Part shown: in pieces, positions 37,454 through 56,167 of the stretch
Position numbering within the stretch: the first letter of the stretch is position 1
How the letters are laid out: every line of letters starts with the position of its first letter
From: a bacterium
GTDB lineage: Bacteria; Patescibacteriota; Dojkabacteria; JAKAPS01; JAJZLI01
Direction of reading: 5' to 3'
Length of the DNA: 56,167 bases
Assembly: GCA_021791275.1 (NCBI GenBank)
Contig: JAJYWX010000028.1
Coordinates: forward strand, 11,582 to 67,748
Made by a program: the position numbers and the translations under genes
The notes under the pieces: generated by a model
Told to the model about the DNA's origin: nothing
What the model saw: the letters and a program-made list of their open reading frames with translations, nothing else
Database searches by the model: none

Positions 37454-37476
37454 AAGTGAAATTATAACATATTATT

Positions 37477-37839: not shown

Positions 37840-37842
37840 AAA

Positions 37843-39249: not shown

Positions 39250-39881
39250 TCCTTGTTAACATTTCTGAATCTATAAAATTCTCTTACCCTTAAAGATGAA
39301 AATCTACCTATGTATATATCAGCAATAATTGCTATTATAGATATATAGGGATATTTAAGAAGAATCATTTTTGAAAAATCGTTAGCGATAATAAGATAGG
39401 ATATCACAGTGAGTATTATTGTCTCTATGTATATTATATTACCCCTTCTCTCTCCTTTATTAATCTTTGTAAATGATAGTGAATCTGCAAGAAGAATAAG
39501 GACAAGTACTGAGTATATAGAGATTTTTGTATTAATACCCAAAAAAGAATGTGCAAGATAAAGTGAGAGTATTATAGAAAGAGATGCTATCGATATAACT
39601 ACGGCAATTTTTGCAGTGTAGTGAAGTTTTAAATCTTTTATAAAATATTTTATTATATAATCAAAGAATAATATAAAAAAAGTTATTATAAGGCCTAAAA
39701 CAAGTCCTGTTGATATAAATGCAAGAACAGATAGGGTCGTTATAAAAAGATTAAATGATTGTACCCCTATGACTTCCTTTGAGAATAATACTATAGTTGC
39801 AACTATGGGTATTGCCAAAAGTAGGTATAAAAAGTTAGAACTTATACCTGTACTCATTAAAAATATAGTAATTTCGTTCAT
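39246..39881 (-). CDS. 7-TM membrane protein (7TM_transglut-like partner of the ATP-grasp gene)
   Basis: A 211-aa protein with about 7 hydrophobic helices. It overlaps the ATP-grasp gene by 4 nt. Confidence 0.55.
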   Translation of the reverse strand: MNEITIFLMSTGISSNFLYLLLAIPIVATIVLFSKEVIGVQSFNLFITTLSVLAFISTGLVLGLIITFFILFFDYIIKYFIKDLKLHYTAKIAVVISIASLSIILSLYLAHSFLGINTKISIYSVLVLILLADSLSFTKINKGERRGNIIYIETIILTVISYLIIANDFSKMILLKYPYISIIAIIADIYIGRFSSLRVREFYRFRNVNKE

Positions 39882-39993
39882 AATATAGGCTTAATAAAAT
39901 AACAGAACCTGTTTTATCATAAATTTTCTAATTTGTCTATGTCTAATTATTTATTTAATGGGATAAAAATACAATACCGTTTTTGATATAAGG

Positions 39994-41121
39994 TCAGTTT
40001 GTTTCTCTGTAATCAGTTAATAGCCTTTCTACTTCTTTGTTCTTAAGTTTTTTTAATGCTTTACTTTCAATTTGTCTTATTCTTTCTCTTGTAACTTTAA
40101 ATTCTCTTCCAACCTCTTCAAGTGTTCTTGCAACTCCATCTTGAAGTCCGAATCTTAGCTCAATTACCTTTCTTTCCCTATCAGAGAGGGTAGATAAAAC
40201 TTCCTGTATTTGTTTGCTTAAATAATCTCTATTTGCTATATCTTCAGGTTGTGGAGTATTCTCATCTGCTATGAAGTCTGCAATAGTATTTGCATTACTT
40301 CCATCATCACCAACTGGAGTAGAAAGTGAGGTTGGATATTGAGATATTTTTAGAATTTCCTGAACCTGTTCAACTGTTTTTCCCATAGCTTTGGCAATTT
40401 CTTCTGGCCTAGGGTTTCTTTGTAGTTCAATTGCTAGCTTTCCCCTTATTTTCTGCATTTGATGAATAGTTTCAATCATATGTACAGGGATTCTTATTGT
40501 CCTCTCTTGATCCGCTATAGCTCTAGTTATAGCTTGTCTTATCCACCATGTTGCATAAGTTGAAAATTTATATCCCTTTTTGTAGTCAAATTTATCAACA
40601 GCTCTCATAAGACCCAAGTTACCCTCTTGTATTAAATCAAGTAGATCCAAGCTTCCTTTTCTTACCCATTTCTTTGCTATAGATACAACTAATCTTAGAT
40701 TAGATGTAGTAAGATATTCTTTGGCTTTTTTATCTCCTTTTTTTATTCTTTTTGCAAGAATAACCTCTTCCTCCCCAGTAAGAAGTGGGATTCTTCCGAT
40801 TTCTTGTAAATATGCCCTTATAGGATCAGAATCTATATTTGCCTGTATAGTACGCAAAACTTTAATCTTATCTTCAAGGCTCATAACTTCTTTTTTAGGC
40901 TGTTTTTTAGCACTATTAACTTGATCCTTAGGTCTCTCTTCCTCATATATAAGATCTATATGCTCTTTCTCAAGCTCTATAAAAAGATTGTCTATAGTAT
41001 CTACATCATTTTCTATAAAAGGAAAAGTATTAAGTATATCTTCTTCAACTAGAAAACCTCTTTCTTTTCCCTTCTGAATTAAATTTTGGAGTGCAATATC
41101 TTTTGGATTTTTATCTTTCAT
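39994..41121 (-). CDS. rpoD: primary RNA polymerase sigma factor (sigma-70)
   Basis: Region 2 is [40 protein letters not shown] and region 4 is [24 protein letters not shown]. Confidence 0.95.
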
Positions 41122-41195
41122 AAGGCATTTATATATATCTTAATTATAACATAATAATTGTAATATTTAAAAAAACCGGTGTATAATAATTTTGT

Positions 41196-42098
41196 ATGGA
41201 TGAAAGTCAAGAAATAAAAATTTTTTCTATATATTCAGCAATAGTTGAGTCAATATCTTTGTTTTTTAAAAGTGTCAATGCTTTCTATTTAGGTTTGATA
41301 TCAATAATTTTTGGAAGTATTTTTTTTGCAATAAATTATTTTAGAATTAGTAGCAGTTATTTAAATGGACTGAGTAATATGAACTCCAAAATCTCAAAAC
41401 ATTTATCATTGCAGATAAATTCTTTTGTATCTCATAATTTAAATGTTATTATTCTGGTAATAATCGTTGCTATAGTTTATTTATTAGTATCGATTTATTT
41501 TACATCCATATCATCTGCAGGTCTTATAAATTATGTAATAAAGGGTGATATGCATGAGAATTTTAATGATTCTTGGAGATATGGAAAATCAACCTGGGTA
41601 GATTATTTTGTATTTCTTATTTTATATTATTTAATTTATGTAATATCATTCTTCATTTTACTTCTTTTGATATCATTTTTAACTATTATTGTTCCACCTT
41701 TAGGTCTTATTCTGCTTGTACTTTTGATACTGTCAATTTTTGTAGCAGTTCCTCTAAGTTCCATTGGGGTAAGGTTAGTGATAGATAGAAAAACTGATAT
41801 CGTAGAGGCTATAAAAAATACATATATATCATTTTGGAAAAATATTGGTTTTTATCTTAAGGTTATTCTTTTTTACTTATTAGTACTTATCCTTTTGTCT
41901 TTAATCTTTTCTTATGGGATAGAATTTTTAATAATAATTGTTACGCAGTCATTATTTAGAAGCAATATATATTTAGGTATAACTTCAGGGGTTATAGGTA
42001 TATTTATAGTTATCTATATATCAGCATTCATTAATGTTTTTTCATCTGCGTTTTGGAGTAAGGTTTATGTTTATCTTAGAGATAATAACCATCTCTGA
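41196..42098 (+). CDS. polytopic membrane protein, unknown function
   Basis: A 300-aa ORF with 6 or more hydrophobic segments. Confidence 0.55.
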   Translation: MDESQEIKIFSIYSAIVESISLFFKSVNAFYLGLISIIFGSIFFAINYFRISSSYLNGLSNMNSKISKHLSLQINSFVSHNLNVIILVIIVAIVYLLVSIYFTSISSAGLINYVIKGDMHENFNDSWRYGKSTWVDYFVFLILYYLIYVISFFILLLLISFLTIIVPPLGLILLVLLILSIFVAVPLSSIGVRLVIDRKTDIVEAIKNTYISFWKNIGFYLKVILFYLLVLILLSLIFSYGIEFLIIIVTQSLFRSNIYLGITSGVIGIFIVIYISAFINVFSSAFWSKVYVYLRDNNHL

Positions 42099-42894
42099 TA
42101 GATTTAAATATAAATAACTGTGCCCACCCAGAAAAATTTTCAAAATTCTTTTTTATTTGAATTTTCTCTTCTTTTCTTTTAACTCTTTTTTTAAGATATC
42201 TTTTAATCCAAACATCTTCAGGAAATGCATCATGAAATCCTAGTGAATAAAGTAATATACAATCAGAAACTTTATCTCCTATACCAGGAAAAGATAAAAG
42301 AGTATTTTTAGCATCAGTATATTCTTTAGCTTTTAATTGATAAAGATCTAAATTATCTGAAATTAACTTTTGTGCACTTTTTTTTATATACTCTGACCTG
42401 TAACCTAATTTTGCATCTTTTAAAATTTGATTATCTGCATCTTTCAATTTTTCTTTTGTTGGAAATGTATAAAAATCATCTGTAATTTTTTCTCCAAGTT
42501 TTTGAGATAAAATATCTCTTGAGAGTTGTACTTTTTTTATTGAGTTAAAACTAGATATTATATATGAAAAAAAACACTCATATGGTTCCTGATTAACTAT
42601 CCTTAGACCTTTATATTTTTCTACAACAGGTTCGATCTCTTTATTTTTTAAAAGAATAGATATAATATTTTCGTAATCAATATTAAGATTAAAAAAATGT
42701 ATTATCTTTTCCTCATCAATTTTAGGTGTGGATTCTATAATTAAGAAATTATTTCTTTGCTCTATTTGAATAAAGTGTTTTTCTAAAACCCCTATATATT
42801 TATATTCTCTTTCTCTTTTAAAATTAAAGCACTGTCCTGAGGAGAGTGTATATTCTAAATCAAAATCTTTTACAAGAATTTTTAAAGTACTCAT
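42076..42894 (-). CDS. ogg: 8-oxoguanine DNA glycosylase/lyase (HhH-GPD superfamily, OGG-type)
   Basis: HhH-GPD region LLSFPGIGDKVSDCILLYSLGFHDAFPEDVWIKR, with an OGG-like N-domain. Confidence 0.75.
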   Translation of the reverse strand: MSTLKILVKDFDLEYTLSSGQCFNFKREREYKYIGVLEKHFIQIEQRNNFLIIESTPKIDEEKIIHFFNLNIDYENIISILLKNKEIEPVVEKYKGLRIVNQEPYECFFSYIISSFNSIKKVQLSRDILSQKLGEKITDDFYTFPTKEKLKDADNQILKDAKLGYRSEYIKKSAQKLISDNLDLYQLKAKEYTDAKNTLLSFPGIGDKVSDCILLYSLGFHDAFPEDVWIKRYLKKRVKRKEEKIQIKKNFENFSGWAQLFIFKSIRDGYYL

Positions 42895-43784
42895 ATCAAT
42901 GAGGCGCCCTTTATATCTGATAAATTATCATATGTAATTTTTAATCTTCCTTTATATTTTTTATATATATTTTTTTCTACCATATTTTGATATTCTTTCT
43001 CTTTACATATAAAAGATCCCTGAAACATTAAGGATGCGCTTTTATATTCATCTATATATGAGAGTATCGATTGGGCGAAAAGAGAAGAAGATAATTTTAG
43101 CATTTCTGAGTATGGGATTTCATATCTTATTGCCAGATCTTTAATTGAATTTTGAGCAATCAATCTTTCAAATGTAAGATTTTCATTTTGAAATATTTTT
43201 GGTAGTAGAAATTTAGGTAATTTATCATTTCCAAATTCCGAATTAAAAACTTTACTATCTTTAGTGTAAGATAAATTTACCCCAGTTCCTGATAAAGCAC
43301 TAATGTGTATGTCAAAATTTTTATTCTTATATATGTTATATAAATTTACTGAAACTGAGTCATTTAAAACATTAAATTTGCCAATTTTTGAAGATAAAAG
43401 AAAGGTCTCTTTTTTAAAAGGAAGCTTTTTTGTAACTTTTGAATATGAAGAAAATTTAGCGTCTGTGAAATTTTCTTTTTTTATTGGAGTAAATGGATAT
43501 GAAAATATTATTACAGTATTTTTATTTTGGAAATTTTTACTTTCATATATATTTTTTATATTTTTAAAAAATAACTCGGGATTTTCAAAATCTATATTTT
43601 CTTTGTATTGTTTTTCAATATCGAAATTTTTAAGAAGAGTAAAATATATATGAGATCCCCCAATTCCTATTATCGATGAGGATTTTTTTATTGATAGCTC
43701 AGTTGTATTTATAAGGGAGTCATATCCTTTATTTAAGATAAATCTTTTTATTATCTGAGTTTTATCTTCATAATTTAGATTCAT
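42891..43784 (-). CDS. hypothetical protein (297 aa)
   Basis: Complete ORF overlapping its neighbours by 4 and 17 nt. A weak IGIGGSHIY motif could indicate an ASKHA-type kinase fold, but this is not secure. Confidence 0.45.
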   Translation of the reverse strand: MNLNYEDKTQIIKRFILNKGYDSLINTTELSIKKSSSIIGIGGSHIYFTLLKNFDIEKQYKENIDFENPELFFKNIKNIYESKNFQNKNTVIIFSYPFTPIKKENFTDAKFSSYSKVTKKLPFKKETFLLSSKIGKFNVLNDSVSVNLYNIYKNKNFDIHISALSGTGVNLSYTKDSKVFNSEFGNDKLPKFLLPKIFQNENLTFERLIAQNSIKDLAIRYEIPYSEMLKLSSSLFAQSILSYIDEYKSASLMFQGSFICKEKEYQNMVEKNIYKKYKGRLKITYDNLSDIKGASLI

Positions 43785-44625
43785 ACTTTTTTTTGACTTC
43801 TCTAGAAAAGTGTACTAATGATCCCATACCTATAACAAGTACAGTAACAGTTACCATGACAAATCCAATACCAAGATGGTGTAAATTACCAACATCTATT
43901 CCTGTATTAATTGACAATGATGCAATTTTAGGTAGAGCAAGGGTAAATATTCCACCTGCAATAAATATAGCTCCTCCATATGTAAGTGTTGTACCTGCTA
44001 TTTTTGATGCAATTTTTATTCCTTCACTTTCTGGTATTTTCATCTTTCTAATCCAGCGGCCAAAAAATCCTCCAAAAATTATTTGTATAAGCATGGTACC
44101 TATTCCAAAAAGAAATCCAGGAAGGAATGCTACATATGCATTTGGCATTCTGGGAGTTATTATTGTATAAAGTATTAGGGCAAACGATCCAAATCCCCAG
44201 CCTGCAATAAACCCATGTACAAGTGCCATTGAAGGTTTTATCTCTTTTACATCCTCTTTCATATCATGGGTATGTTTCTTTCCTATCCATTTTGAGGGGA
44301 AAAGATCTAGATGCAAAATTTTTCTTGTTCCCATTACATACACACCTGCAATAAACATAACTAGACCAACTATAAGGTAGACATATCCATTTATTGAGAA
44401 AAAATCTTTTACTCTTATTAAGGCCAGATAAACTATTTCAGAAGCTAAAGCTCTCTGAATAGTAAATGCCAGGGTAAATAAAAAAGCTACAAATATACCC
44501 TTCTTTGTTGAAAATGATCCAATCGCATAGCTAAATGTAATTGGCCAAGTATGCTCATCTGGAGTTATTCCATGTATCATTCCCAGCATCAGAGAGTATA
44601 AGAGTAATAAAAAAAATCCAGCCAT
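43768..44625 (-). CDS. polytopic membrane protein, possible metal transporter
   Basis: A 285-aa protein with about 7 TM helices and an N-terminal HGITPDEHTWP motif rich in potential metal ligands. The family was not recognised with certainty. Confidence 0.5.
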   Translation of the reverse strand: MAGFFLLLLYSLMLGMIHGITPDEHTWPITFSYAIGSFSTKKGIFVAFLFTLAFTIQRALASEIVYLALIRVKDFFSINGYVYLIVGLVMFIAGVYVMGTRKILHLDLFPSKWIGKKHTHDMKEDVKEIKPSMALVHGFIAGWGFGSFALILYTIITPRMPNAYVAFLPGFLFGIGTMLIQIIFGGFFGRWIRKMKIPESEGIKIASKIAGTTLTYGGAIFIAGGIFTLALPKIASLSINTGIDVGNLHHLGIGFVMVTVTVLVIGMGSLVHFSREVKKKYESKL

Positions 44626-44681
44626 AATGTAGTTTTTATAACGTATAAATTATATAATCAATTTATTATAACATAATAAAA

Positions 44682-45323
44682 ATGTATCAATTTGAAGAGG
44701 AAATAGTAGAAACAGATAATAGTAAAATTCCTAAATTTTATTCTAAAGGTTTTCTTCTAACAAGAAAAGGTGTTGGAGTAATGCAAAAAGTTAGAAGTCT
44801 AAGGGTAGATTTGAGTCAATTTTCTCTCACCAGTGAAAACAGAAGGGTATTGAGAAAAAATGAAGATGTATCGTTCTCAATTTATAATCTACCGCTAGAT
44901 GATTATAATTGGAAGATACACAAAATGGGGGCTGATTTTTATAGACAAAGGTTTGGAGATAAAGTTATGAGTGCGAATAAAATAAAAGATATGGTGAAGG
45001 AGAAAAAAACATCTTTTAACAAATTGATGGTATTTTCTAAAAAATCTCAAGATCTTGGTTATGCTATTTGTTTTGAGTATGGGGAAATTTTACATTACGC
45101 TTATCCTTTCTATGATCTTTCCTATACGTCTAAGACTTTAGGCATCTTTATGATGACAAGGGCTATTATCTATGCTCAAGATGAATCTCTTAAGTATGTA
45201 TATCTAGGTTCTGTAAATAGCAAGGAGGCTTTGTATAAGCTGCAATTTAGGGGTCTATCTTTTTTTGAAAAAGATTCTTGGAAAAGTGATTTAGAAGATT
45301 TAAAGAGGATGTTGAGAGATTGA
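44682..45323 (+). CDS. aminoacyl-tRNA-protein transferase, ATE/Bpt-like
   Basis: FSLTSENRRVLRKN and C-terminal VYLGS...ALYKLQFRGLSFFE resemble the ATE_C/Bpt family pattern (RR..L+.N, YLGY..., YK..F.P.E). Confidence 0.5.
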   Translation: MYQFEEEIVETDNSKIPKFYSKGFLLTRKGVGVMQKVRSLRVDLSQFSLTSENRRVLRKNEDVSFSIYNLPLDDYNWKIHKMGADFYRQRFGDKVMSANKIKDMVKEKKTSFNKLMVFSKKSQDLGYAICFEYGEILHYAYPFYDLSYTSKTLGIFMMTRAIIYAQDESLKYVYLGSVNSKEALYKLQFRGLSFFEKDSWKSDLEDLKRMLRD

Positions 45324-45745
45324 ATAGTTTAGTGTATAATATGGCAAATATGAAAAGTATGAGCGTTTATAAAAAATTTTGGGTATTTGCAATAGGAATT
45401 TTGCTTATAGCTATAGGTCTTTCTTCTGGTATTATTGTATTTGAGGTAATTATAAGTTTAATAGGTCTTTATTTTGTAATAGCTTCAATTATGGGTTCTT
45501 TTAGTTTTCTAAATGTACTATTTTCTCAAAAAGAAAAAGTAGCCGTAAAAAGTGAGAATCTGGATAGTGATGTGAAAAAAGTTACAGGAGAAGTGAAAAC
45601 AAGGGAGACAAAAAAAACTGTAGCAAAAAAATCTAAATCTACAGTTTCAAAATCTAAGAGTGTGGGCTCAAAGAGTACAAAAGTTTCAAAAAAAGCTCCT
45701 GCAAATTCAAGTAAAAAATCTGATAAAAAGACTTCAAAAAAATAA
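45320..45745 (+). CDS. small membrane protein with a lysine/serine-rich C-terminal tail
   Basis: Two TM helices followed by ...KKVTGEVKTRETKKTVAKKSKSTVSKSKSVGSKSTKVSKKAPANSSKKSDKKTSKK. Confidence 0.5.
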   Translation: MNSLVYNMANMKSMSVYKKFWVFAIGILLIAIGLSSGIIVFEVIISLIGLYFVIASIMGSFSFLNVLFSQKEKVAVKSENLDSDVKKVTGEVKTRETKKTVAKKSKSTVSKSKSVGSKSTKVSKKAPANSSKKSDKKTSKK

Positions 45746-45800
45746 TCCAAAATATTAAAAAATTTTCTTATATTTTCAATTAAAAATTCAATATTTTCAT

Positions 45801-45829
45801 TTGACAAAAGATTAAATATTATCTATATT
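45801..45829 (+). promoter_or_regulatory. candidate sigma-70 promoter of the giant gene
   Basis: A perfect TTGACA (45801-45806), a 17-nt spacer, then TATATT (45824-45829). The ATG at 45843 would leave only a very short 5' UTR. Confidence 0.45.
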
Positions 45830-45842
45830 TATAGGTAATATT

Positions 45843-48800
45843 ATGCATAATTTAAGAAGGTTTTTATCAATCTTAGCTTTTAGTGCTTTATCTCTTTTTT
45901 TGTTTTCTTTTGGGGGAAAGATTTATGCCGCCCCTGCTTCACTTTTGAATTATCAAGGAAGACTTGAAAATGCTCAAGGGGATCTTTTGACTGGAAATTA
46001 CTATATAGCTTTTTGTATATATAACTCAACCACTGCGACTGCTTGTGCTCCAGGATCTACTCCAACCCCAGGAGCAATGAGTACTGCAGGGACATCTTCT
46101 GGAACATTGAATGGAGCTTTGTGGGGAGAAGTACAGTACTTTTCAAATACTAATACTCCTTCAAATGAGATATCAAATGGAGTTTTCAATGCTCAATTAG
46201 GAGAGTACTCTCCAATAACAGGATCTTTATTTCAAGGCAGTAGTAACTACTATATCGGATTTAATGTTTACAATGGAACTGGCTGGGATGGTCAGATGAC
46301 TCCACTTCAACCTATAGATCAGGTGGCCTACGCTATGAATAGTGCTCTTCTTCAGGGTTTTTCTCCTTCTCAGACACCTGGAGCTAATCAAGTGGTTGTA
46401 ACTAATGGAAGTGGTGATATAACATTGGGTGCTACTAATCCTCAAATTAATGCAACGGGTACAAATTCTTTAACTCTTAATGGAGGAGGTGGTACTGGAA
46501 ATATACAATTTTTTAATTCTTCAAATTATATAAACTCATCTGGGGATTTAAATCTGTTAGGTGGGGGTACATTTGGCGGAAATATAACTTTGACTGGAGT
46601 AAATCCTCAAGTAGATGCAACGGGAAGTAACGATTTAATCTTAAACAATGGATCTACGGGAGATGTATGTTTTAATACGTGTTCAAATTATGTTACATCT
46701 TCTGGAAATATAACTCTAGTAGGAACTGGTGTAAATAATATAAATGGAAATACTATACTTACAGAAGCGGATCTTAATATATCTGGCTTATATCAGGTAA
46801 CGGGTCTTGTAGTAGTATCAACAGCTCAGACGGGAGGAACTATTGCAGCTGGAACATATTATTATCAAGTAGTTGCACAGAATTCTTCAGGGGTATCATT
46901 CCCATCTCAAGAGATATCTGTAAGTTTACCTCCAATATCTTCTCCTACAGGATTAACAGCAACAGTAGGGACATCGGGTACAGTAGGATCAGATTTGGCA
47001 GCATCAACAACATACTATTATGAGGTAACAGCAACAACACCAAACGGAGAGACTACACCATCAGCACAGGTATCGGCAGTGGAGGGAACAACTGCATATC
47101 CCATAACACTTACATGGAGTGCAGTTGCAGGAGCAACAGGGTATAACATATATAAAGGTACTGTGTCGGGGTCGGATTACTTTTTAGCATCTGTTGGGAG
47201 TACTAGTTCTAGTTATACAGATTCGGGATCAGTAGCAACAACTAGCACAACACCACCTAGTACTAATACAGCAACGACAAATACCAATACAATTAGTCTT
47301 TCTTGGAATACTGATGTTGGGGCAACTTCTTATATTATTTATAGATCTTCAGATTCTGATTTTTCTCCGTCATACTCACAGACAACTACATCTACAACTT
47401 TTACAGATACAGGAGGAGGAGTAGTAGTTACATCTCCTGAGACTGCTTCCTCAATAGCTCAAACTGGTGGTGGGAATTTAAATTTATCTAATAATGAGAC
47501 ACTTGGGGGTGGATCTCTATCTTTGAATAATAGTTCAGGAAATATTATTAATTCAAATTCGTCATTAGGTATAGATGTTGGTAGTTCTGCTGCAAATATT
47601 GGAGATTTGCAAAGTACAACAGCTCTTCCTGGTGGAGGAACTGGGTCAGTTAAGATTGTATATAACGGATATATGTACAATATCTCAGGAAACCATGGTA
47701 ATTGTGGATCATATTGTGAAGAGGAGAATGTTTATTATGCTCAAATTCAGTCAAATGGTTCTGTTGGCACTTGGGAAAATACTACACCATATCCGATATA
47801 TGTAGAAAACCTAAGTGCAGTTGAGTATGGTGGATATATTTATGCATATGGAGGATTAATGAGTGGAGTCTCATCTACAAATGCTGTGTATTCAGCAAAA
47901 ATCAACTCTGATGGCACTTTAGGGCAATGGGTCCAACAAAACTCCCTTCCAGGATCTTTATCATCTGCTGTATATTTTGAATATAACGGATATATATATG
48001 ATATAGCTGGGTCTATAAATGGTATAGATCATAATTCTCAGGGTTATTATGCACAAATAGTTTCTGGTGGTGTATTGGGAAATTGGAAAACCCTTACAGC
48101 AAATAGTCCTGTTGATGCGAATCAAGGTTTTGAGTATAGAGGTTATGCATATGTGTCAGCCGGAACTAATGTTTATTATGGACAAATACTTAGCAATGGA
48201 GATATACAATCTTGGACAGTTACTACTTCTTTACCTTCAAATAGTTCCTCAGTTTGGCTAGGTGATTATGGGGGATATGCATATTCTTTATCTCAGAATA
48301 ATTCTCCTTCCTATTATTCACAAATACAACCTAACGGTAGCTTAGGTAGTTGGAATGAACTTTCAATAACACTTCCTTATGTTAATGGAGAATTTGGATA
48401 TCAAAACGCACTTTTTTCAAATGGATATATTTATGTGGTTGGTATTGGGGGAATAAATAATCTTTCATACGCACCTGTAGGTAATAGTAATATTAATATT
48501 GGAAATTCTCTATCTTTATCTTCAAGCGGTGATATCATATCTTCAGGCAATGGTAGTTTTTCAGGCGGGTCTTTAAATCTTTCTAATACATCTTCAAATA
48601 ATATAAATTCTAGCTCACCTTTAAATATATCAACATATAATACCAATCCTTCTCTGCAAAGTTGGAATCCTACGAGTTTACTACCTGCAGCAGTAAGTGG
48701 AGGAGGGAGTGTAGAGTATGGAGGATATGTATATGATATAGGAGGAGAGACAGGAAGATCAGCAGTATCAAGTGTGTATTATGCCCAGATACAAAGTGGA

Positions 48801-51800
48801 GGAGGACTGGGTACATGGAATAGTACGACATCACTACCTACAGCAGAGAGTGGAATAAGTGTAGTAGAGAGTGGAGGATATATATATGTAATAGGAGGAA
48901 ATGATGGTATTGGAGATGTAAATTCTGTATATTATTCCCAGATACAAAGTGGAGGAGGATTAGGATCATGGAATAGTACGACATTACTACCTAATAGTGT
49001 AGAGAATGTAGGGAGTGTAGAGTATGGAGGTAATATATATATATTAGGAGGAAATAACGGTACGAGTTATACAGGAGATGTATATTATGCGCCGATAAAT
49101 GGTAATGGATCATTAGGAGGTTGGACATCTACGACAGCACTACCTGTGAGTATGTCTGGGGTAGGAGTAGTAGAGTATGGAGGATATATATATGTAGTAG
49201 GAGGGTACAACGGTAGTGTAAATGAGAGTAGTGTATATTCGTCACAGATTGGAAGTAATGGAGTATTGGGATCATGGGAGAGTACGACATCATTACCTAC
49301 ACAGGTATCAGGAGAGGCAGTTACATCATATGGAGGTAATTTATATGTTGCTGGTGTGGGATCTTCAAATGTATATTTTGCAACTTTCAATACAGATGGA
49401 ACAATATCTAATTTTAGCATTACAAGTTCTCTTCCATCTTCTTATTCTGGAGGTAGTATTTTTGAAAATGATGGATATATGTACTATTTGGGAGAAGGAA
49501 ATGTTTCTTCTGCTGCAGTATCAAATGCTGATTTATCTGGTAATAATAACACACTTACACAGACATCTGTTTCAGTATCTAACTCCTCTCCTATAACAGG
49601 ATCAGATAGTTCAGCATACTTTAATGGACAGAATTCATATATGGTCCCTCCTAATAATCTAAATAACCAGTCCATATCAACAGTATCTACAGTATCATTG
49701 TGGTTTAAGACTACATCAGATGGAGGATTATGGGGAACATCAAATAGTGCACCATTTAACTCTAGTAGTAGCTATACACCAGCTCTATATGTAGGGACTA
49801 CGGGACTTTTGCAAGGTTTGTATTACAATGGAGGTACGAATACAATAAACTCATCATCCCCTGTCAATAATGGAGTCTGGCATAACGCTGTTATAGTGGC
49901 TGATGGTAATACTCAGTCAATTTATTTGGATGGTTCATTAGTTGGAACGGCATCAGGAGTAAATGCACAGAATGACCCATATGAGACTTTAGGCATTGTA
50001 GATGCTAATGGTTGGCCTAATAGCTTTAATTCAAATAATGGGTGGTTTCCTTTTAATGGAGATATAGCAGATGTATCACTATTTAATACGGCATTAACCT
50101 CATCTCAGATAAGTAGCCTTTATTCAGATACCACATCTCAGAGTACGTATAACTCTGGTGTATTATCTTTATCTCCTGTAGGTTTTTGGGAACTTTCAAA
50201 AGATAAAGGAACTAATGTCTATTATTCACAGATTGGAAATGGAGTTAATATTGGAAGTAATAATCAAAATAATATATCTTTAAATACAGTTGGAGATATT
50301 ACTCTTAATAATGCAGGTCTTATATCTGCAGGTGGAGAGACTATAAATGGTAATCTAAATGTGGTGGGAATCTCTACTCCTACTGGATTACAGCTATCAT
50401 CATCAGTTATAGGAGGTAATCTAACTCCAGGTACTTACGGTTACCAGGTAGTAGCAGTAGGAGCTCAAGGAGAAAGTTTAGCTACCCAATCGATACAGGT
50501 ATCTACATCTGCTATCTCTTCGCCTACAGGATTAACAGCAACAGTAGGGACATCGGGTACAGTAGGAGCAGATTTAGCTGCATCCACAACATACTATTAT
50601 GAAGTAACGGCAACAACACCAAACGGAGAGACTACACCATCAGCTCAGGTATCAGCAGTAGAGGGAACAACCGCATATCCAATAACACTTACATGGAGTG
50701 CAGTGTCAGGAGCGACAGGGTATAACATATATAAGGGAACTACATCTGGGTCGGATTACTTTTTAGCATCAGTTACTAGTACGAGTTATACTGATTCGGG
50801 ATCAGTAGCGACAACGAGTACAACCCCACCTAGCAGTGATACAGCGACGACGAATACGAATAGTATATCTGTAGCATGGAATCCTGTAGAGAATGCGATA
50901 GGGTATAAGGTATACAGGGAGAATTTGACTAGTTTTGCTATTAATAGTACATCTGATCTGAATCCACCTGTAGGACTTACTGCTACATTAACAACTACTG
51001 CATCATCAGGATCAGATTTAGCTGCATCAACAACATATTATTATGAAGTGACAGGAATATCTGCCAGTTCTAATGGGGAGACCACAGTTTCAAATCAGGC
51101 ATCTGTAACTGAGGGTACAACTGCATACCAGGTGAGTCTTTCTTGGTATTCAGATGGAGCCAATAGTTATCGTATATATAAATCTACTACGTCTGGAGGG
51201 GAAGGTTATCTTGCTCAAGTCTCTAGTACAGTTTGTGTTAATGGAGTCTGTACATTTACAGATACAGGATCTGATCCAATTGAACAAAATATAACATATT
51301 GGGATAATACTACTTCATTACCTAATGCAATAAGTAATGAGATATCATTAGAATATGGAGGATATGCATATATAATTGGTGGAGGATCATCTTCTACATA
51401 TTATGCACCAATCAATTCGAATGGGACAATAGGTACGTGGACGAGTACTACACCTTTTCCAGTTACGGGGCAGAATTATGGTACTGGTGTTGAATACAAT
51501 GGTTATATTTATGTATTGGGAGGCTCTAACAGCAGTGCAGGACAGTCGAATAATGTTTATTATGCACCGATCAATACAAATGGGACAATAGGTACATGGA
51601 CAGCTACAACAGTATTGCCGTATTCAGTTCAGAGTATATCTGCAGTGGAATATGGTGGGTATATGTATATATTTGGGGGGTTAAATGGGAATTTCCAAAC
51701 GAGTAGTGTATATTCATCTTTGATAGGTTCTACTGGGGCTTTAGGTTCTTGGAGTGCAGAGACATCGTTACCTGTTACCTTGGGATATTCTACTGCATTT

Positions 51801-54800
51801 GAGAATAATGGTTATGTATATATGTTTGGAGGTGGAAATGTTGAGAATTGTTGTGGTATTGATTCTGCTGTATCTACGGTATATTATGCGCAGTTAGGCA
51901 GTGGGGGTACATTAGGAATGTGGCAGTCAGCAACATCGTTACCAACCTCATTATGGTTAGCATCGTCATTTGAGTATAATGGATATGCATATGTAGTTGG
52001 TGGACAGAATAATCCTAATTTTGGTGCTGGTAGTGTAAATACAGTATATTATGCTGCGATAAATACAAACGGTACACTGGGTGAATGGTATACAGATTCG
52101 GCTTATTTGCCAGAGGATATTGGATCTGCAGGAGCATTTGAATACAATGGATATGCATATGTATTTGGGGGAAGTAATAATGGTACAAGTTATAATAATG
52201 TCTTGTATTGGGCAATATCATCGGTTGCTCAAATACAAAATTATGTCCAAACGTCTATTCCTTCTGGTACAGATACCTCTGTAAGTGTTGAGTATAATGG
52301 ATACTTATATGAGGTTGGAGGGTATACCTCCTCTGGGGAAACTGCTAATGTATATTATGCACCGATCAATACAAATGGGACAATAGGTACATGGACAGCT
52401 ACAACATCACTCCCTGTGAGTTTACACTACTCTACAGGAGTAGCATATAATGGATACATATATACATTCGGAGGGTATAGTAATTCAGCGGGCAATTCTA
52501 TAAGTACAGTCTATTATGCACCAATCAATTCGAATGGGACTATAGGTGTATGGTCTACAACAACGGCTCTCCCCTATGCAGATTATGAATTGTCTTCTGT
52601 TGAATATGATGGATATGTATATATCTTGGGGGGAAATGAGGCTAATGTTGGAACAGTAGCAGGGGTCTATTATGCACCGATCAATACAAATGGGACAATA
52701 GGTACATGGACAGCAACTACATCTCTGTCTCAAAATATACAATGGGCTACAAGTGTTGAATATAATGGGTATATATATGAAATAGGTGGAAGTAACAATG
52801 GTAATGCAGATTTATCAGCAGTTTATTATGATACAATAAGTACAACAGGTGGATTAGGTTCTACATGGACGGTAACCACATCCCTCCCTCAAAATATAGA
52901 TAATTCTGTGAGTGTTGCATATAACGGGTATATATATGAAATAGGGGGGTATAATGGAAGTTCATATTTAAGCATAATTTATTATTCTCAAATACAAACT
53001 AACGGAACATTGGGATCTTGGAATCCAGAAGTATCATTTTTACCTCAGGGAGGTATAGATGGTGCATCTGGAGTAGAATATGGAGGGAGTTTGTTTTATA
53101 TAGGAGGATATAATGGATCTTATCTGTCAGAAGTTTATTCTTGGCCAATTAACAATTATTATGTAACAAGTCCTTTTGGAATAAATGATTCCGCAACTAA
53201 TTTACCTGAAAGTATCTACGAGGCCTCTTCTGTGACATATAATGGGTATATATATGAGATAGGAGGGCAAGATGGTAATGGGAATAATCTTGTCTTTTAT
53301 TCCAAAATTAAATCTAATGGAGGTATATCAGGGTGGAATCAAACCACCCCTTTACCTCAAGGAATATATCAAGCTAAAGCTATAGTTTATGGAGGATATA
53401 TATATGAAATGGGGGGGTGTGGTAGTGCAGGTGATTGTGCTACAAACCTAATATATTATTCGCAAATTCAAAATGATGGAACCCTAGGCACATGGAACAC
53501 TTCTTCTACCTCTTTGCCTTTAAGTATAACTCACTTTATGTTGGTGGAATATAACGGGTACGTATATATAATGGGAGGAAATAATGGTGGGACAATATAT
53601 TCATCTATATATTATAGTGAGATACAAGGTGCAGGAGAATTCTCACAATGGCAATCAGCTATATCCCTTCCCTCTGGTATAAATATGAGATCTGCTGCTG
53701 TAGAATACAATGGTTATATATATTTGATGGGGGGAGATAACGGTAGTACAATAGTAAATAATGTATATTATACGCAGATACAAAATGGAGGATCATTGGG
53801 AAGTTGGAATTCAACAACATCTTTACCCCAATCAATTGATAGGAATACAGCAGTAGCTTATAATGGATATATATTTGAAATCGGAGGTTATAATGGGAAC
53901 TATACTTCAAATGTGTATTATTCAGAAATTCAATCGGATGGGTCATTAGGTAGTTGGGGACAAAGTGCTTCTCTTCCTACTGCAGAGGATCATATGGCGA
54001 GTGTTGAAAGTGGTGGTTATGTATATGTATTAGGGGGATATAATGGGTCATCTGCTTTAAATAGTGTTTATTCTTTTGAACTAATTCCATATTCTTATAA
54101 TATATCATCTGGGATGCAAACAAGCTTTTTTGATAGTGGAGGGAGTACATATAAGTTGGAATCTCCTACAACAATAACCCCCAGCGGAGGTACTGGTATA
54201 TTTAATGGAAATTTAATTGCAGATTCGGGATTGCAAACGGATTCTAGTGCACAACTTTGTGCAAGTTCTTGTAACACCGGACTTTCAACCTTGGATAATA
54301 ATTTCTACTTAATCAATGATACTTCTCCAAGTGGAAATTTCATTTTCAAGGCAGATTCTTATAATGGGATAAATTCTGGTAATAATATAACATATTGGGA
54401 TAATACTACTTCATTACCTAATGCAATAAGTAATGAGATATCATTAGAATATGGAGGATATGCATATATAATTGGTGGAGGATCATCTTCTACATATTAT
54501 GCACCAATCAATTCGAATGGGACAATAGGTACGTGGACGAGTACTACACCTTTTCCAGTTACGGGGCAGAATTATGGTACTGGTGTTGAATACAATGGTT
54601 ATATTTATGTATTGGGAGGCTCTAACAGCAGTGCAGGACAGTCGAATAATGTTTATTATGCACCGATCAATACAAATGGGACAATAGGTACATGGACAGC
54701 TACAACAGTATTGCCGTATTCAGTTCAGAGTATATCTGCAGTGGAATATGGTGGGTATATGTATATATTTGGGGGGTTAAATGGGAATTTCCAAACGAGT

Positions 54801-56167
54801 AGTGTATATTCATCTTTGATAGGTTCTACTGGGGCTTTAGGTTCTTGGAGTGCAGAGACATCGTTACCTGTTACCTTGGGATATTCTACTGCATTTGAGA
54901 ATAATGGTTATGTATATATGTTTGGAGGTGGAAATGTTGAGAATTGTTGTGGTATTGATTCTGCTGTATCTACGGTATATTATGCGCAGTTAGGCAGTGG
55001 GGGTACATTAGGAATGTGGCAGTCAGCAACATCGTTACCAACCTCATTATGGTTAGCATCGTCATTTGAGTATAATGGATATGCATATGTAGTTGGTGGA
55101 CAGAATAATCCTAATTTTGGTGCTGGTAGTGTAAATACAGTATATTATGCTGCGATAAATACAAACGGTACACTGGGTGAATGGTATACAGATTCGGCTT
55201 ATTTGCCAGAGGATATTGGATCTGCAGGAGCATTTGAATACAATGGATATGCATATGTATTTGGGGGAAGTAATAATGGTACAAGTTATAATAATGTCTT
55301 GTATGCCTTATTACAATCTCCTCCTGCATCTATACAAAACATCGCAACGTTGACAAATGAAGGTGTTTTTAGTACTAATACTCTAACTGCAGTAAATTCT
55401 GTAAACGGGGGAACACTTAATTCTTCAGGTGGGAATCTGAATCTTCAAAATACTCAATCAGATAATATAAACTCTTCTGGAGTCCTTAATCTGAATTCTT
55501 CAGGTGGAATGAATATAAATCCTTCTGGGTTAATTAATATAAATCTTCCTAGTGATCAAAATATTCAATTAGGTAATTTTGTAAATCAGGGTTCGATGCC
55601 ACTTGCTGTTGGATGTGGGGGTAATTGTAGCTCACTTTCATCAATAAGTGGGTCTTTATCGGTAGTAAAGTATAATGGGTTTGTTTATAACGTAGGGGGA
55701 GATGGTTCTATAAATGTATATTATGGAGAATTAAGCTTTGAAAATAATATTTCAAATTGGCAACAAACAACATCATTGCCTTCACAAGCTTCATATCCAG
55801 TAACAATAGCATATGATGGTTATATCTATGCTATTAGTAGTGCTGCTAGTGGAACTTTATCATCATCTGTTTATTATTCACAAATTCAATCTAACGGGGC
55901 ATTGGGTTCTTGGATATCTACTACTTCTTTACCTTTAGCACTAACAAATACTGGTGCAGTAGAGTATAATGGATACATTTATACAATTGGTGGTTGTGAT
56001 AGTTCAAGTGGATGTAGTGGTAGCACCCTTATTCCAACAGTTTATTACGCACAAATACAGTCAAATGGAACCATAGGGAGCTGGTCTACAACTTCATCTT
56101 TACCAGTCAGTTTATATGAAGATGCAGGGACAGTTTTGGCATATAATGGATATATTTATTCTATAGG
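45843..56167 (+). CDS. giant secreted/surface modular protein, 3'-truncated by the window (more than 3,441 aa): signal peptide, beta-rich N-domain, FN3-like modules, LamG-like domain, about 40 Kelch-like blades
   Basis: I translated the frame starting at ATG 45843 codon by codon to nt 56167 and met no stop. The track omits it because it has no in-window stop. The N-terminus is MHNLRRFLSILAFSALSLFLFSFGGKIYA/AP. The recurring blade motif is V-Y-Y-A-x-I-x-x-N-G-x-L-G-x-W...L-P...V-E-Y-N-G-Y-I-Y-x-x-G-G. Confidence 0.9.
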   Translation, partial: MHNLRRFLSILAFSALSLFLFSFGGKIYAAPASLLNYQGRLENAQGDLLTGNYYIAFCIYNSTTATACAPGSTPTPGAMSTAGTSSGTLNGALWGEVQYFSNTNTPSNEISNGVFNAQLGEYSPITGSLFQGSSNYYIGFNVYNGTGWDGQMTPLQPIDQVAYAMNSALLQGFSPSQTPGANQVVVTNGSGDITLGATNPQINATGTNSLTLNGGGGTGNIQFFNSSNYINSSGDLNLLGGGTFGGNITLTGVNPQVDATGSNDLILNNGSTGDVCFNTCSNYVTSSGNITLVGTGVNNINGNTILTEADLNISGLYQVTGLVVVSTAQTGGTIAAGTYYYQVVAQNSSGVSFPSQEISVSLPPISSPTGLTATVGTSGTVGSDLAASTTYYYEVTATTPNGETTPSAQVSAVEGTTAYPITLTWSAVAGATGYNIYKGTVSGSDYFLASVGSTSSSYTDSGSVATTSTTPPSTNTATTNTNTISLSWNTDVGATSYIIYRSSDSDFSPSYSQTTTSTTFTDTGGGVVVTSPETASSIAQTGGGNLNLSNNETLGGGSLSLNNSSGNIINSNSSLGIDVGSSAANIGDLQSTTALPGGGTGSVKIVYNGYMYNISGNHGNCGSYCEEENVYYAQIQSNGSVGTWENTTPYPIYVENLSAVEYGGYIYAYGGLMSGVSSTNAVYSAKINSDGTLGQWVQQNSLPGSLSSAVYFEYNGYIYDIAGSINGIDHNSQGYYAQIVSGGVLGNWKTLTANSPVDANQGFEYRGYAYVSAGTNVYYGQILSNGDIQSWTVTTSLPSNSSSVWLGDYGGYAYSLSQNNSPSYYSQIQPNGSLGSWNELSITLPYVNGEFGYQNALFSNGYIYVVGIGGINNLSYAPVGNSNINIGNSLSLSSSGDIISSGNGSFSGGSLNLSNTSSNNINSSSPLNISTYNTNPSLQSWNPTSLLPAAVSGGGSVEYGGYVYDIGGETGRSAVSSVYYAQIQSGGGLGTWNSTTSLPTAESGISVVESGGYIYVIGGNDGIGDVNSVYYSQIQSGGGLGSWNSTTLLPNSVENVGSVEYGGNIYILGGNNGTSYTGDVYYAPINGNGSLGGWTSTTALPVSMSGVGVVEYGGYIYVVGGYNGSVNESSVYSSQIGSNGVLGSWESTTSLPTQVSGEAVTSYGGNLYVAGVGSSNVYFATFNTDGTISNFSITSSLPSSYSGGSIFENDGYMYYLGEGNVSSAAVSNADLSGNNNTLTQTSVSVSNSSPITGSDSSAYFNGQNSYMVPPNNLNNQSISTVSTVSLWFKTTSDGGLWGTSNSAPFNSSSSYTPALYVGTTGLLQGLYYNGGTNTINSSSPVNNGVWHNAVIVADGNTQSIYLDGSLVGTASGVNAQNDPYETLGIVDANGWPNSFNSNNGWFPFNGDIADVSLFNTALTSSQISSLYSDTTSQSTYNSGVLSLSPVGFWELSKDKGTNVYYSQIGNGVNIGSNNQNNISLNTVGDITLNNAGLISAGGETINGNLNVVGISTPTGLQLSSSVIGGNLTPGTYGYQVVAVGAQGESLATQSIQVSTSAISSPTGLTATVGTSGTVGADLAASTTYYYEVTATTPNGETTPSAQVSAVEGTTAYPITLTWSAVSGATGYNIYKGTTSGSDYFLASVTSTSYTDSGSVATTSTTPPSSDTATTNTNSISVAWNPVENAIGYKVYRENLTSFAINSTSDLNPPVGLTATLTTTASSGSDLAASTTYYYEVTGISASSNGETTVSNQASVTEGTTAYQVSLSWYSDGANSYRIYKSTTSGGEGYLAQVSSTVCVNGVCTFTDTGSDPIEQNITYWDNTTSLPNAISNEISLEYGGYAYIIGGGSSSTYYAPINSNGTIGTWTSTTPFPVTGQNYGTGVEYNGYIYVLGGSNSSAGQSNNVYYAPINTNGTIGTWTATTVLPYSVQSISAVEYGGYMYIFGGLNGNFQTSSVYSSLIGSTGALGSWSAETSLPVTLGYSTAFENNGYVYMFGGGNVENCCGIDSAVSTVYYAQLGSGGTLGMWQSATSLPTSLWLASSFEYNGYAYVVGGQNNPNFGAGSVNTVYYAAINTNGTLGEWYTDSAYLPEDIGSAGAFEYNGYAYVFGGSNNGTSYNNVLYWAISSVAQIQNYVQTSIPSGTDTSVSVEYNGYLYEVGGYTSSGETANVYYAPINTNGTIGTWTATTSLPVSLHYSTGVAYNGYIYTFGGYSNSAGNSISTVYYAPINSNGTIGVWSTTTALPYADYELSSVEYDGYVYILGGNEANVGTVAGVYYAPINTNGTIGTWTATTSLSQNIQWATSVEYNGYIYEIGGSNNGNADLSAVYYDTISTTGGLGSTWTVTTSLPQNIDNSVSVAYNGYIYEIGGYNGSSYLSIIYYSQIQTNGTLGSWNPEVSFLPQGGIDGASGVEYGGSLFYIGGYNGSYLSEVYSWPINNYYVTSPFGINDSATNLPESIYEASSVTYNGYIYEIGGQDGNGNNLVFYSKIKSNGGISGWNQTTPLPQGIYQAKAIVYGGYIYEMGGCGSAGDCATNLIYYSQIQNDGTLGTWNTSSTSLPLSITHFMLVEYNGYVYIMGGNNGGTIYSSIYYSEIQGAGEFSQWQSAISLPSGINMRSAAVEYNGYIYLMGGDNGSTIVNNVYYTQIQNGGSLGSWNSTTSLPQSIDRNTAVAYNGYIFEIGGYNGNYTSNVYYSEIQSDGSLGSWGQSASLPTAEDHMASVESGGYVYVLGGYNGSSALNSVYSFELIPYSYNISSGMQTSFFDSGGSTYKLESPTTITPSGGTGIFNGNLIADSGLQTDSSAQLCASSCNTGLSTLDNNFYLINDTSPSGNFIFKADSYNGINSGNNITYWDNTTSLPNAISNEISLEYGGYAYIIGGGSSSTYYAPINSNGTIGTWTSTTPFPVTGQNYGTGVEYNGYIYVLGGSNSSAGQSNNVYYAPINTNGTIGTWTATTVLPYSVQSISAVEYGGYMYIFGGLNGNFQTSSVYSSLIGSTGALGSWSAETSLPVTLGYSTAFENNGYVYMFGGGNVENCCGIDSAVSTVYYAQLGSGGTLGMWQSATSLPTSLWLASSFEYNGYAYVVGGQNNPNFGAGSVNTVYYAAINTNGTLGEWYTDSAYLPEDIGSAGAFEYNGYAYVFGGSNNGTSYNNVLYALLQSPPASIQNIATLTNEGVFSTNTLTAVNSVNGGTLNSSGGNLNLQNTQSDNINSSGVLNLNSSGGMNINPSGLININLPSDQNIQLGNFVNQGSMPLAVGCGGNCSSLSSISGSLSVVKYNGFVYNVGGDGSINVYYGELSFENNISNWQQTTSLPSQASYPVTIAYDGYIYAISSAASGTLSSSVYYSQIQSNGALGSWISTTSLPLALTNTGAVEYNGYIYTIGGCDSSSGCSGSTLIPTVYYAQIQSNGTIGSWSTTSSLPVSLYEDAGTVLAYNGYIYSI
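46944..47310 (+). repeat. FN3-like module pair, copy 1 (diverged duplicate of 50523-50883)
   Basis: PTGLTATVGTSGTVGSDLAASTTYYYEVTATTPNGETTPSAQVSAVEGTTAYPITLTWSAVAGATGYNIYKG... recurs about 3579 nt downstream with scattered substitutions and a 2-codon indel. Confidence 0.8.
50523..50883 (+). repeat. FN3-like module pair, copy 2
   Basis: PTGLTATVGTSGTVGADLAASTTYYYEVTATTPNGETTPSAQVSAVEGTTAYPITLTWSAVSGATGYNIYKG... Confidence 0.8.
51288..52208 (+). repeat. 921-bp intragenic direct repeat, copy 1 (one six-blade unit)
   Basis: The sequence aatataacatattgggataatactact...ataataatgtcttgtat is repeated at 54384-55304. The offset is 3096 nt, which is in frame, and I noticed no mismatch. Confidence 0.9.
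54384..55304 (+). repeat. 921-bp intragenic direct repeat, copy 2
   Basis: See copy 1. The identical antisense shadow peptides in track ORFs 52015..52221 and 55111..55329 independently confirm the identity. Confidence 0.9.

Follow-up and report, generated by a model that had tools for sequence, protein, structure and literature searches.

A giant open reading frame at the end of a stretch of Dojkabacteria DNA, encoding a candidate mosaic adhesion fibre

An open frame of more than 10 kb and its modules

The stretch of DNA considered here (the window) comprises 56,167 nucleotides (nt), positions 11,582 to 67,748 of contig JAJYWX010000028.1 in assembly GCA_021791275.1, assigned to the Dojkabacteria. 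Its last 10.3 kb is the 5' portion of one genuine, very large gene of a Patescibacteria (Candidate Phyla Radiation, CPR) bacterium. Translated from the ATG at 45843 to the last base at 56167 (10,325 nt), the frame runs through 3,441 codons plus 2 nt with no stop; the remaining five frames of the same region carry 233, 301, 171, 192, and 255. Given the local composition (GC fraction 0.37, stop probability 0.074 per codon), 3,441 codons free of stops would arise by chance with a probability of about 1e-115. An in-frame TAA lies at 45813-45815, and the next start codon downstream is the ATG at 45843. Within the frame the G+C fraction is 0.36-0.39, as against 0.25-0.30 in the adjoining genes. Since the protein gives strong matches to Pfam, both to Kelch (PF24681, 221 bits, E 1.4e-65, cut-off 50) and to Laminin_G_3 (8e-16), the frame is coding and no accident.

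The list of open reading frames (ORFs) made for the window gives no hint of the gene. Beyond 45.8 kb it holds only ORFs of 85-124 amino acids (aa), all in other frames, and the region seems empty because the program leaves out ORFs that run off the end of the source. Tracks that require a stop codon thus hide the giant gene completely. An original prediction, made from the letters of the sequence, had read the frame as open to the last base and had blamed the track for showing only ORFs closed by a stop; re-translation and the program's own statement of the omission bear out both points. It had also held that the gene runs past the window, and so it does in an identical contig from JGI, where the frame stays open for 4,122 codons. 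As observations that would undo it, the prediction had named an in-frame stop or long reads revealing a chimeric assembly of several shorter genes. The frame contains no such stop, but an alternative assembly, discussed below, closes the gene at 2,407 aa.

Table 1. Features of the giant gene in the window (positions are those of the window, aa numbers those of the protein)
Feature	Position	Strand	Basis
Sigma-70-type promoter-like site, TTGACA-17 nt-TATATT	45801..45829	+	11/12 consensus matches; 13 nt upstream of ATG
Start codon and predicted Sec-type signal peptide or signal anchor, aa 1-29, MHNLRRFLSILAFSALSLFLFSFGGKIYA/AP	45843..45929	+	hydrophobicity, orthologue motif
Conserved N-terminal beta-sandwich domain (N-domain), aa 30-200	45930..46442	+	orthologue conservation, AlphaFold2 (AF2) model
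Connector 1, aa 201-330, short beta strands rich in G/N/S/T, perhaps a fibre segment of beta-solenoid type	46443..46832	+	low-confidence model
FN3-like module cluster 1, aa 331-530	46833..47432	+	PDB 3mpc_A 'Fn3-like protein', E 3.8e-5
Kelch propeller 1, six blades, aa 595-875	47625..48467	+	blade motifs, ~51-aa spacing
Kelch propeller 2, six blades, aa 945-1262	48675..49628	+	Pfam Kelch_FKB95, best stretch aa 939-1076; blade register
LamG / concanavalin-A-like lectin domain	49629..50222	+	Laminin_G_3 match, aa 1262-1424
FN3-like module cluster 2, aa 1531-1815	50433..51287	+	GH85_C, fn3; holds the point (50991/50992) where L011 departs
Kelch propeller 3, aa 1816-2122	51288..52208	+	921-nt repeat, copy 1; Pfam stretches (NANM, Kelch)
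Kelch propeller 4, six blades, aa 2135-2445	52245..53177	+	Pfam stretch and blade register
Kelch propeller 5, six blades, aa 2450-2762	53190..54128	+	blade register; Kelch_1, best stretch aa 2718-2745
Linker, aa 2763-2847	54129..54383	+	by-eye likeness to start of C-terminal fibre-like tail of L011/L031
Kelch propeller 6, aa 2848-3154	54384..55304	+	921-nt repeat, copy 2; present in JGI contig
Connector, aa 3155-3261, G/N/S-rich	55305..55625	+	sequence; no family match
Kelch propeller 7, aa 3262-3441, cut by window end in blade 4	55626..56167	+	blade register

Just ahead of the gene lies a site that is promoter-like by its match to the consensus (Table 1). Both of its hexamers are kept in a relative that is 83% identical to the window (locus L001), and the TTGACA box also stands upstream of the orthologues at L005, L004, and L008, described below. 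The original prediction had given the protein a Sec-type N-terminus, and it does begin with what may be a cleaved Sec-type signal or an uncleaved signal anchor. Residues 6-28 make up the sole hydrophobic segment in 3,441 aa (Kyte-Doolittle), with an n-region containing RR, an h-region of 17 residues, and an end at I-Y-A/A-P. The region aa 1-29 is modelled as a helix, and a cleavage-type motif, (V/I/S)-x-A, precedes the conserved domain in all orthologues. Relatives with a transmembrane (TM) helix directly ahead of the N-domain leave room for an uncleaved signal anchor. No further TM segments occur within the window protein, and neither an LPXTG motif nor a C-terminal hydrophobic segment was found, whether in the part encoded by the window or in the closed form of 2,407 aa. 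Both would be expected of a sortase-anchored Gram-positive adhesin.

The composition of the chain is extreme. After the signal, 3,412 residues include 16 Lys and 8 Arg (0.7% combined, compared with 11.9% in neighbouring proteins), 6 His, and 187 Asp or Glu, for a net charge of about -160; S, G, T, N, and Y together account for 57% of the chain. The 20 Cys all fall into ten pairs, with partners 1-10 residues apart. The depletion of Lys and Arg (to 0.4-1.5% combined) is common to the proteins of L005 and L011 and to the homologues P0001-P0003, P0007/8, P0037, and P0041; it extends to related Kelch-tail proteins of other Patescibacteria and is milder (5-6.6%) in distant relatives of the N-domain. 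Such a composition would befit an extracellular protein, stapled by disulfides and resistant to trypsin-like proteases. That the protein is exported is suggested because the lone N-terminal hydrophobic segment, the x-A motif, the paired Cys, the lack of other TM segments, and a K+R content of 0.7% all point the same way.

Behind the signal comes a domain (the N-domain) that is 71-95% identical in close relatives and 45-54% identical in the next tier. Its AF2 model, built with 20 sequences, is a beta sandwich (mean pLDDT, the predicted per-residue confidence, 80; pTM, the predicted template modelling score, 0.71) that matches nothing in PDB or BFVD at E<=1e-3. The beta-rich N-terminal domain of the original prediction is therefore real and conserved. 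The beta-helix-like stretches it saw farther on fared less evenly: the model of connector 1 has regular short strands, but with a pLDDT of only 50-60. A model of aa 1-330 as a whole is likewise of low confidence (pLDDT 57), and a fold search from it is meaningless. Connector 1 has no match in Pfam, NCBIfam, PHROGs, or PDB. Connectors like it recur at aa 531-594, 876-944, 1461-1530, and 3155-3261.

The binding-type modules that had been proposed stand up to different degrees. The FN3-like modules exceed the cut-off for GH85_C (30.4-30.8 bits, cut-off 27) and resemble a PDB entry (3mpc, E 3.8e-5) but fall short of it for fn3 itself (PF00041, 20.6 bits, cut-off 25); in cluster 1 the Pfam matches to GH85_C, fn3, and Ig_Rha78A_N are weak. 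The LamG-like lectin fold is clear (PF13385, E 8.2e-16, 58.9 bits, cut-off 27.6, profile positions 3-151 of 151), and so are the many Kelch-like blades, with scores above the gathering cut-offs given in parentheses for PF01344, 75.9 (20.1), PF25210, 100.5 (70), and PF24996, 95.6 (45). Blades were recognised in the sequence register as units of about 45-55 aa, in sixes, each with a hydrophobic strand followed by a GG motif, rather than from a three-dimensional model of a propeller. Counted in this way they number 40, spaced 44-59 aa apart (about 51), in six full sets of six and one truncated set, whose blades lie at aa 3277, 3324, 3375, and 3434; there the frame goes on in the JGI contig to codon 4,122. 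Propeller 1, scanned alone (aa 611-880) against Pfam, gave no Kelch match. The best stretch for Kelch_KLHDC2_KLHL20_DRC7 is aa 2044-2264 (profile positions 6-221 of 221), and Kelch domains in PDB match propeller 3 at E 3e-7, its six-blade unit measuring about 307 aa next to about 300 aa for the PDB domains. The linker at aa 2763-2847 matches no family in Pfam, NCBIfam, PHROGs, or PDB sequence searches; its likeness to the tail of L011 was judged by eye (window ...GIFNGNLIADSGLQTDSSAQLCASSC..., L011 ...GIFSGNVIADSGLSSANSAQLCVSSC...).

Propellers 3 and 6 aside, the propellers are 41-49% identical among themselves. Those two are encoded by an exact repeat, 51288-52208 and 54384-55304 being 100% identical over 921 nt. 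The repeated unit is exactly one propeller, and its copies lie 3,096 nt (1,032 codons) apart, both in frame. Two FN3 modules (46935-47289 and 50514-50862) share 88% of their nucleotides, and older copies of the propeller share about 67-71%. These repeats indicate that the array grew through repeated duplication of cassettes. The last duplication may be very recent, or else the repeat may have been left unresolved by the assembler.

Clusters of substitutions are found within Kelch blades of two contigs that are otherwise nearly identical to the window, with 10 differences in 90 nt in L016 (window 48381-48470) and 3 differences in 128 nt in L014 (48866-48993). These could be patches of variation of the sort left by gene conversion, or perhaps local mis-assembly between blades.

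The gene in other assemblies and in relatives

The proteins that flank the giant gene were found on 16 contigs. One of them, Ga0438459_0003713 of JGI 3300039716 (22,239 nt), matches the window over 35972-55745 with 0 mismatches, both 921-nt copies included, and its gene call stays open to the end of the contig, about 2 kb (2,043 nt) past the window. This contig may share reads with the window, so the two are possibly not independent. A contig of GCA_027425295.1 keeps to the window as far as 51160, where it stops, with zero mismatches within the gene. Another eight contigs break off inside the gene, yielding proteins of 349-1,649 aa. A practical warning follows for anyone who would look for such genes: most short-read assemblies of this organism break inside the giant gene, and one closes it at another length.

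That one is L011, a 162-kb contig of GCA_027425375.1. For 16.3 kb, as far as 50991, its sequence is that of the window; at 50992, within an FN3 module, it departs and passes into another propeller and a tail of 270 aa. The tail ends in a match to the H-type lectin family (H_lectin, 23 bits, just under the cut-off of 24), the gene closes at 2,407 aa, and BipA is next downstream. A 4.8-kb contig from the same JGI sample, L031, carries the same tail followed by BipA. L031 departs from L011 at six positions within its initial 166 nt and then agrees with it throughout 4.3 kb, and therefore the tail is preceded in L031 by a second, slightly different copy of the FN3 repeat, not by the copy at 50806-50991. 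In neither L011 nor L031 was an S74 domain seen in the closed form. The simplest reading would be of a single gene composed of a 5' part of at least 12.4 kb, an intervening stretch, the second FN3 copy with a propeller behind it, and lastly the fibre-like tail with the lectin. Provided that there is no overlap between the two JGI contigs, the whole would come to about 4,800 aa or longer. On this reading the 2,407-aa form would reflect a real deletion from one FN3 copy to the other, or else a collapse of the assembly.

A shorter contig, L001 (ena:ERZ27237444:k141_391354), is collinear with window 45679-48903 at 83% nucleotide identity. Its last 99 nt (3233-3331) diverge into unrelated sequence with a stop, giving a gene call of 1,032 aa; the contig end may be chimeric, an insertion may have occurred, or the allele may be truncated.

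When a genome collection was scanned with the N-domain, seven loci were found. At L005, in the metagenome-assembled genome (MAG) TL1-1.bin64, a giant gene has ahead of it the neighbours known from the window: RpoD (80% identity), OGG, two hypothetical proteins, and ATE_C. Its frame meets no stop for at least 3,541 codons, as far as the locus reaches, with 4.5 kb of contig beyond. The N-domain at L005 is 72% identical to that of the window, and the same types of modules follow but in a different order, with FN3 modules even between blades. In three other MAGs the gene runs off the contig end soon after its start. MAG DBS1-2.bin54 has two paralogous N-domain genes, L004 and L008 (75% and 70% identical to the window), which run off their contigs after 229 and 144 codons; some relatives, therefore, carry more than one such giant gene.

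An exhaustive search with the N-domain through 1.84 billion representatives returned 6 proteins at E<1e-30 and 423 at E<1e-3, 116-2,087 aa in length. The complete small members of the family (P0007, P0008, P0146) keep the N-domain and vary everything downstream; P0146 has an H_lectin-like C-terminal end. Neither P0007 nor the C-terminus at L005 has a match in Pfam, NCBIfam, PHROGs, or PDB sequence searches. P0008 and P0007 (674 and 686 aa) are tandem paralogues at L003 (7801-12061), with the N-domain in common and the remainder different; a gene for a tyrosine recombinase lies about 6 kb upstream of the pair, and one for a TraG/VirD4-like ATPase lies downstream. In P0006 (478 aa, on a 193-kb ENA contig), the sequence turns abruptly after about residue 330 to one rich in Arg, Pro, and His and unlike the family, which suggests a frameshift or an artefact of gene calling.

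Homologues of the giant protein that carry an organism name are mostly from 'Patescibacteria group bacterium' or from Saccharimonadales/Saccharibacteria, with a few from Acidimicrobiales or Nitrospirae. SecY of the window points to the same phylum: it has relatives at 71-88% identity, one of them on a 757-kb contig, and beyond these its matches reach 52% at most, those with an organism name (48% or less) coming from Patescibacteria, Parcubacteria, Berkelbacteria, and Doudnabacteria. Elsewhere among the Patescibacteria, homologous Kelch propellers occur in fusions with prepilin N-termini (PF07963) and with phage tail-collar domains (PF07484), which speaks for kinship with fibres or adhesins. 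Five broader relatives, all from Patescibacteria (P0422, P0420, P0161, P0148, P0150), are annotated as 'site-specific integrase'. They are built of one or two integrase-type SAM-like N-terminal domains (cytoplasmic), a TM helix, a MAT_N-like domain, and a fibre; P0422 and P0161 also have an intein-like (Hint) insertion within the fibre. Several paralogues from one 90% cluster of these relatives sit on a single 188-kb contig. Since many broader-family proteins match XerC models, a shufflon-like system was considered, and it was rejected on finding the layout of SAM-like domain, TM helix, and fibre, lacking a recombinase catalytic domain. The position of the N-domain directly after the TM helix in these proteins supports its placement near the envelope.

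Neighbouring genes

The locus of the giant gene, flanked by RpoD, MetRS, OGG, and BipA, has the context of a core genome. With such flanks and without phage genes at the locus, a prophage tail fibre was rejected. Upstream of the giant gene and co-oriented with it is an ATE_C-like gene (44682-45745), having the fold of aminoacyl-tRNA-protein transferases, whose position is kept in the orthologous locus L005 (59% identity). Between this gene and the giant gene sits an unannotated ORF of 134 aa that was not found in L005. Farther upstream, on the minus strand (37843-39881), a gene for an ATP-grasp protein (ATPgrasp_ST) with a C-terminal part like Zn_protease is paired with one for a 7TM_transglut membrane protein. 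The pair is kept in all contigs of the same locus, and in GCA_027339905.1 (L016) it is split by a frameshift.

Far from the giant gene, a 63-nt (21-aa) unit is repeated in tandem 26.4 times (6858-8519) within an ORF of 1,010 aa (5544-8576) that has no Pfam match and no signal peptide. The consensus, ...LGNLESAEGLQLPESVGGNLD..., has the look of a leucine-rich repeat. About six copies of the unit occur again at 10088-10498 (in ORF 10004-10543), 1.5 kb downstream of the main array. The G+C fraction is raised in the repeat region (0.38), and the GC skew is strong.

Candidate function, rival explanations, and known systems

Apart from the type IV pili of Saccharibacteria, little is known, to our knowledge, of how ultra-small CPR/Patescibacteria recognise their hosts and keep hold of them. 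The locus offers a concrete, conserved candidate for such attachment: a gene with a promoter-like site whose product is of an exported type, poor in Lys and Arg, and linked through its N-domain to the prey-binding mosaic adhesive trimer (MAT) fibres of Bdellovibrio, with binding modules shuffled between related species and perhaps between strains.

The link to MAT proteins comes from the NCBIfam model NF053851 (Bdello_MAT_N), which matches the N-domain of the window at E 1.1e-4 (22 bits). Of the 20 aligned homologues, 12 match it at E<=0.1; in the broader family 52 of 60 do so at E<=0.001, the best at E 4.9e-13. The N-domain looks to be a remote relative of the MAT N-domain at the level of the superfamily, not a member of the curated Bdellovibrio subfamily.

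The best reading, to which we would give a probability of about 0.6, is that the bacterium is an episymbiotic member of the CPR and that the gene encodes a mosaic adhesion fibre akin to MATs, exported and tethered to the envelope, with propellers and lectins for binding ligands on the surface of the host. According to this proposal, a strong sigma-70-type promoter would drive the gene, and the Sec signal would carry the chain across the membrane. The N-domain, directly behind the signal, would stay by the cell envelope and hold the protein there, or perhaps the uncleaved signal would itself serve as membrane anchor. The remainder would project outward, with G/N/S/T-rich connectors bearing FN3-like domains, one LamG lectin, and six-bladed Kelch propellers to the number of seven or more; at its far end the chain probably has a fibre-like stalk tipped by an H-type lectin. 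Binding by the modules, to glycans or to proteins of the host or partner cell, would lead to attachment. Duplication and recombination among the gene's own repeats may remodel the array, so that lineages, and possibly strains, would differ in length and in their repertoire of binding. Retention at the surface, the targets of binding, trimerisation, and variation of length in vivo we infer.

A number of observations weigh against this interpretation. The score of the window protein against the MAT_N model is far under the curated cut-off (60). MATs are homotrimers of about 1,000 aa with one tip, and a series of 300-aa propellers may not suit a trimeric fibre. The connectors are modelled at low confidence only, and the function is read from domain content. 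As to the gene itself, one assembly closes it at 2,407 aa; apart from the window, only the identical JGI contig shows the exact 921-nt repeat, and the two perhaps derive from the same reads; and the C-terminal tail lies outside the window, its tie to the long form being one of synteny (BipA downstream in both L011 and L031).

On a first rival reading, the true gene would be the 2,407-aa form, its length inflated in the window by a false join, through the FN3/Kelch repeats, of 50992-56167 from a paralogue or another strain. An exact repeat of 921 nt exceeds typical short-read inserts, at least nine other contigs break within the gene, the window and the JGI contig may not be independent witnesses, and L011 departs from the window at 50991, after 16.3 kb of identity, for another propeller, a tail, a stop, and BipA. 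Yet the junctions of the 921-nt repeat (both of them) and the junction at 50992 keep the frame and fall at domain borders, and GCA_027425295.1 stays on the path of the window for 169 nt past the branch point with no mismatch. Since the FN3 copy in the JGI tail contig differs (6 differences in 166 nt, then 0 in 4.3 kb), the tail does not follow on copy 1 in that sample, and there must be further sequence between the two. Moreover, the orthologue L005, from a related species, is itself at least 3,541 codons long, and the short form could just as well have arisen by collapse or by a real deletion. An inflated gene thus seems unlikely.

If the long gene is accepted, its product might still be something other than an adhesin fibre. 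Perhaps it is an array of secreted or periplasmic enzymes that process carbohydrates, akin to NanM or to galactose-oxidase-like Kelch enzymes: Pfam NANM matches at 3.4e-27, NCBIfam mutarotase models match weakly, and JGI labels many of the homologues 'N-acetylneuraminic acid mutarotase'. Those NCBIfam models (TIGR03547, NF010730), however, score 27-34 bits against cut-offs of 243-416, so far below that what is detected is only the shared Kelch fold, which automatic names follow. The 8 Arg and 6 His in 3,412 residues leave little room for seven catalytic centres, and the surrounding FN3, LamG, and fibre-like modules are of the binding or spacer type. We give such an array very little credence. 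Or perhaps the protein forms a structural or protective coat, like an S-layer or a shield against proteases and phages, and does not bind a host. A strong-looking, conserved promoter and a conserved locus in the core genome would serve a coat well, and the extreme depletion of Lys and Arg, with the net charge near -160, would suit a layer that is not sticky and resists proteases. But S-layer proteins are usually much smaller and without arrays of lectins and propellers. The order of modules differs greatly between related species, which better fits changing ligands than a lattice, and binding is what the lectin tip and the kinship with MAT fibres suggest. A coat is accordingly an improbable alternative to the adhesion fibre.

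A wider proposal, possible but doubtful at present, is that Patescibacteria carry a giant branch of the MAT superfamily, combining an envelope-proximal N-domain with a recombining array of Kelch, FN3, and lectin modules whose length varies between strains (2,407 vs >4,122 aa). If true, an organ for grabbing hosts, variable in size and specificity, would be common to unrelated bacteria that depend on contact.

MATs are surface fibres of Bdellovibrio with a trimeric shaft and swappable adhesive tips, lectin folds among them (Caulton et al. 2024, PMC10769870). Directly after the signal peptide they have a beta-rich, conserved domain, about 130 aa long, without a homologue in PDB, thought to bind an element of the predator's surface and to present the variable tips (PMC10769870). 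The superfamily has so far been characterised only in Bdellovibrio, though MAT-like fibres outside that genus were already anticipated (PMC10769870). The window protein resembles MATs in the succession of signal and conserved beta-rich N-domain (about 130-170 aa) with no structural homologue in PDB, in the long fibre region rich in G, N, S, and T, in its mosaic of exchangeable adhesive modules that include lectin folds, and in an organism that lives by contact with other bacteria. It differs in size (more than 4,000 aa, compared with about 1,000 aa) and in bearing globular modules (at least seven Kelch propellers, LamG, FN3) along the chain, whereas MATs have a single C-terminal tip. No S74 domain was seen, the cell is a monoderm-like CPR cell rather than a Gram-negative predator, and the trimer is known for MATs only.

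Among CPR bacteria themselves, the predator Vampirococcus lugosii has giant surface proteins of 1,392-4,163 aa, inferred to act in attachment to the host (Moreira et al. 2021, PMC8080830). Both cases concern giant envelope proteins of a CPR bacterium composed of interaction domains (beta-propellers, fibronectin, and PKD in Vampirococcus). Vampirococcus, however, belongs to Absconditabacteria, and its proteins, compared here by description only, have WD40, PKD, integrin, and DUF11 in place of the Kelch, LamG, and MAT_N-like domains of the window. The giant genes of Omnitrophota and other bacteria encode proteins of more than 30,000 aa linked to cell-wall degradation (West-Roberts et al. 2023, bioRxiv 10.1101/2023.11.21.568195). 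They too are repeat-rich giant ORFs of ultra-small, host-dependent bacteria, inside which short-read assemblies break, but the protein here is of some 4-5 thousand aa and has no enzymatic domain. With NanM/YjhT and the eukaryotic KLHL proteins, the likeness is one of fold and blade motif (PDB Kelch domains, E 3e-7), and it stops at the fold: the thresholds for mutarotases are not reached, and the propellers here would be extracellular beads in a fibre.

In a search of the literature, no paper connecting Kelch proteins to Patescibacteria came up. Giant surface proteins of CPR bacteria and the breakage of assemblies within giant, repeat-rich genes are already known from the systems just considered. 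What the present locus adds to them is a MAT_N-like anchor domain together with serial Kelch propellers, LamG, and FN3 in one protein of more than 4,000 aa, its extreme depletion of Lys and Arg, and a conserved locus where the order of modules is reshuffled and long and short forms are discordant.

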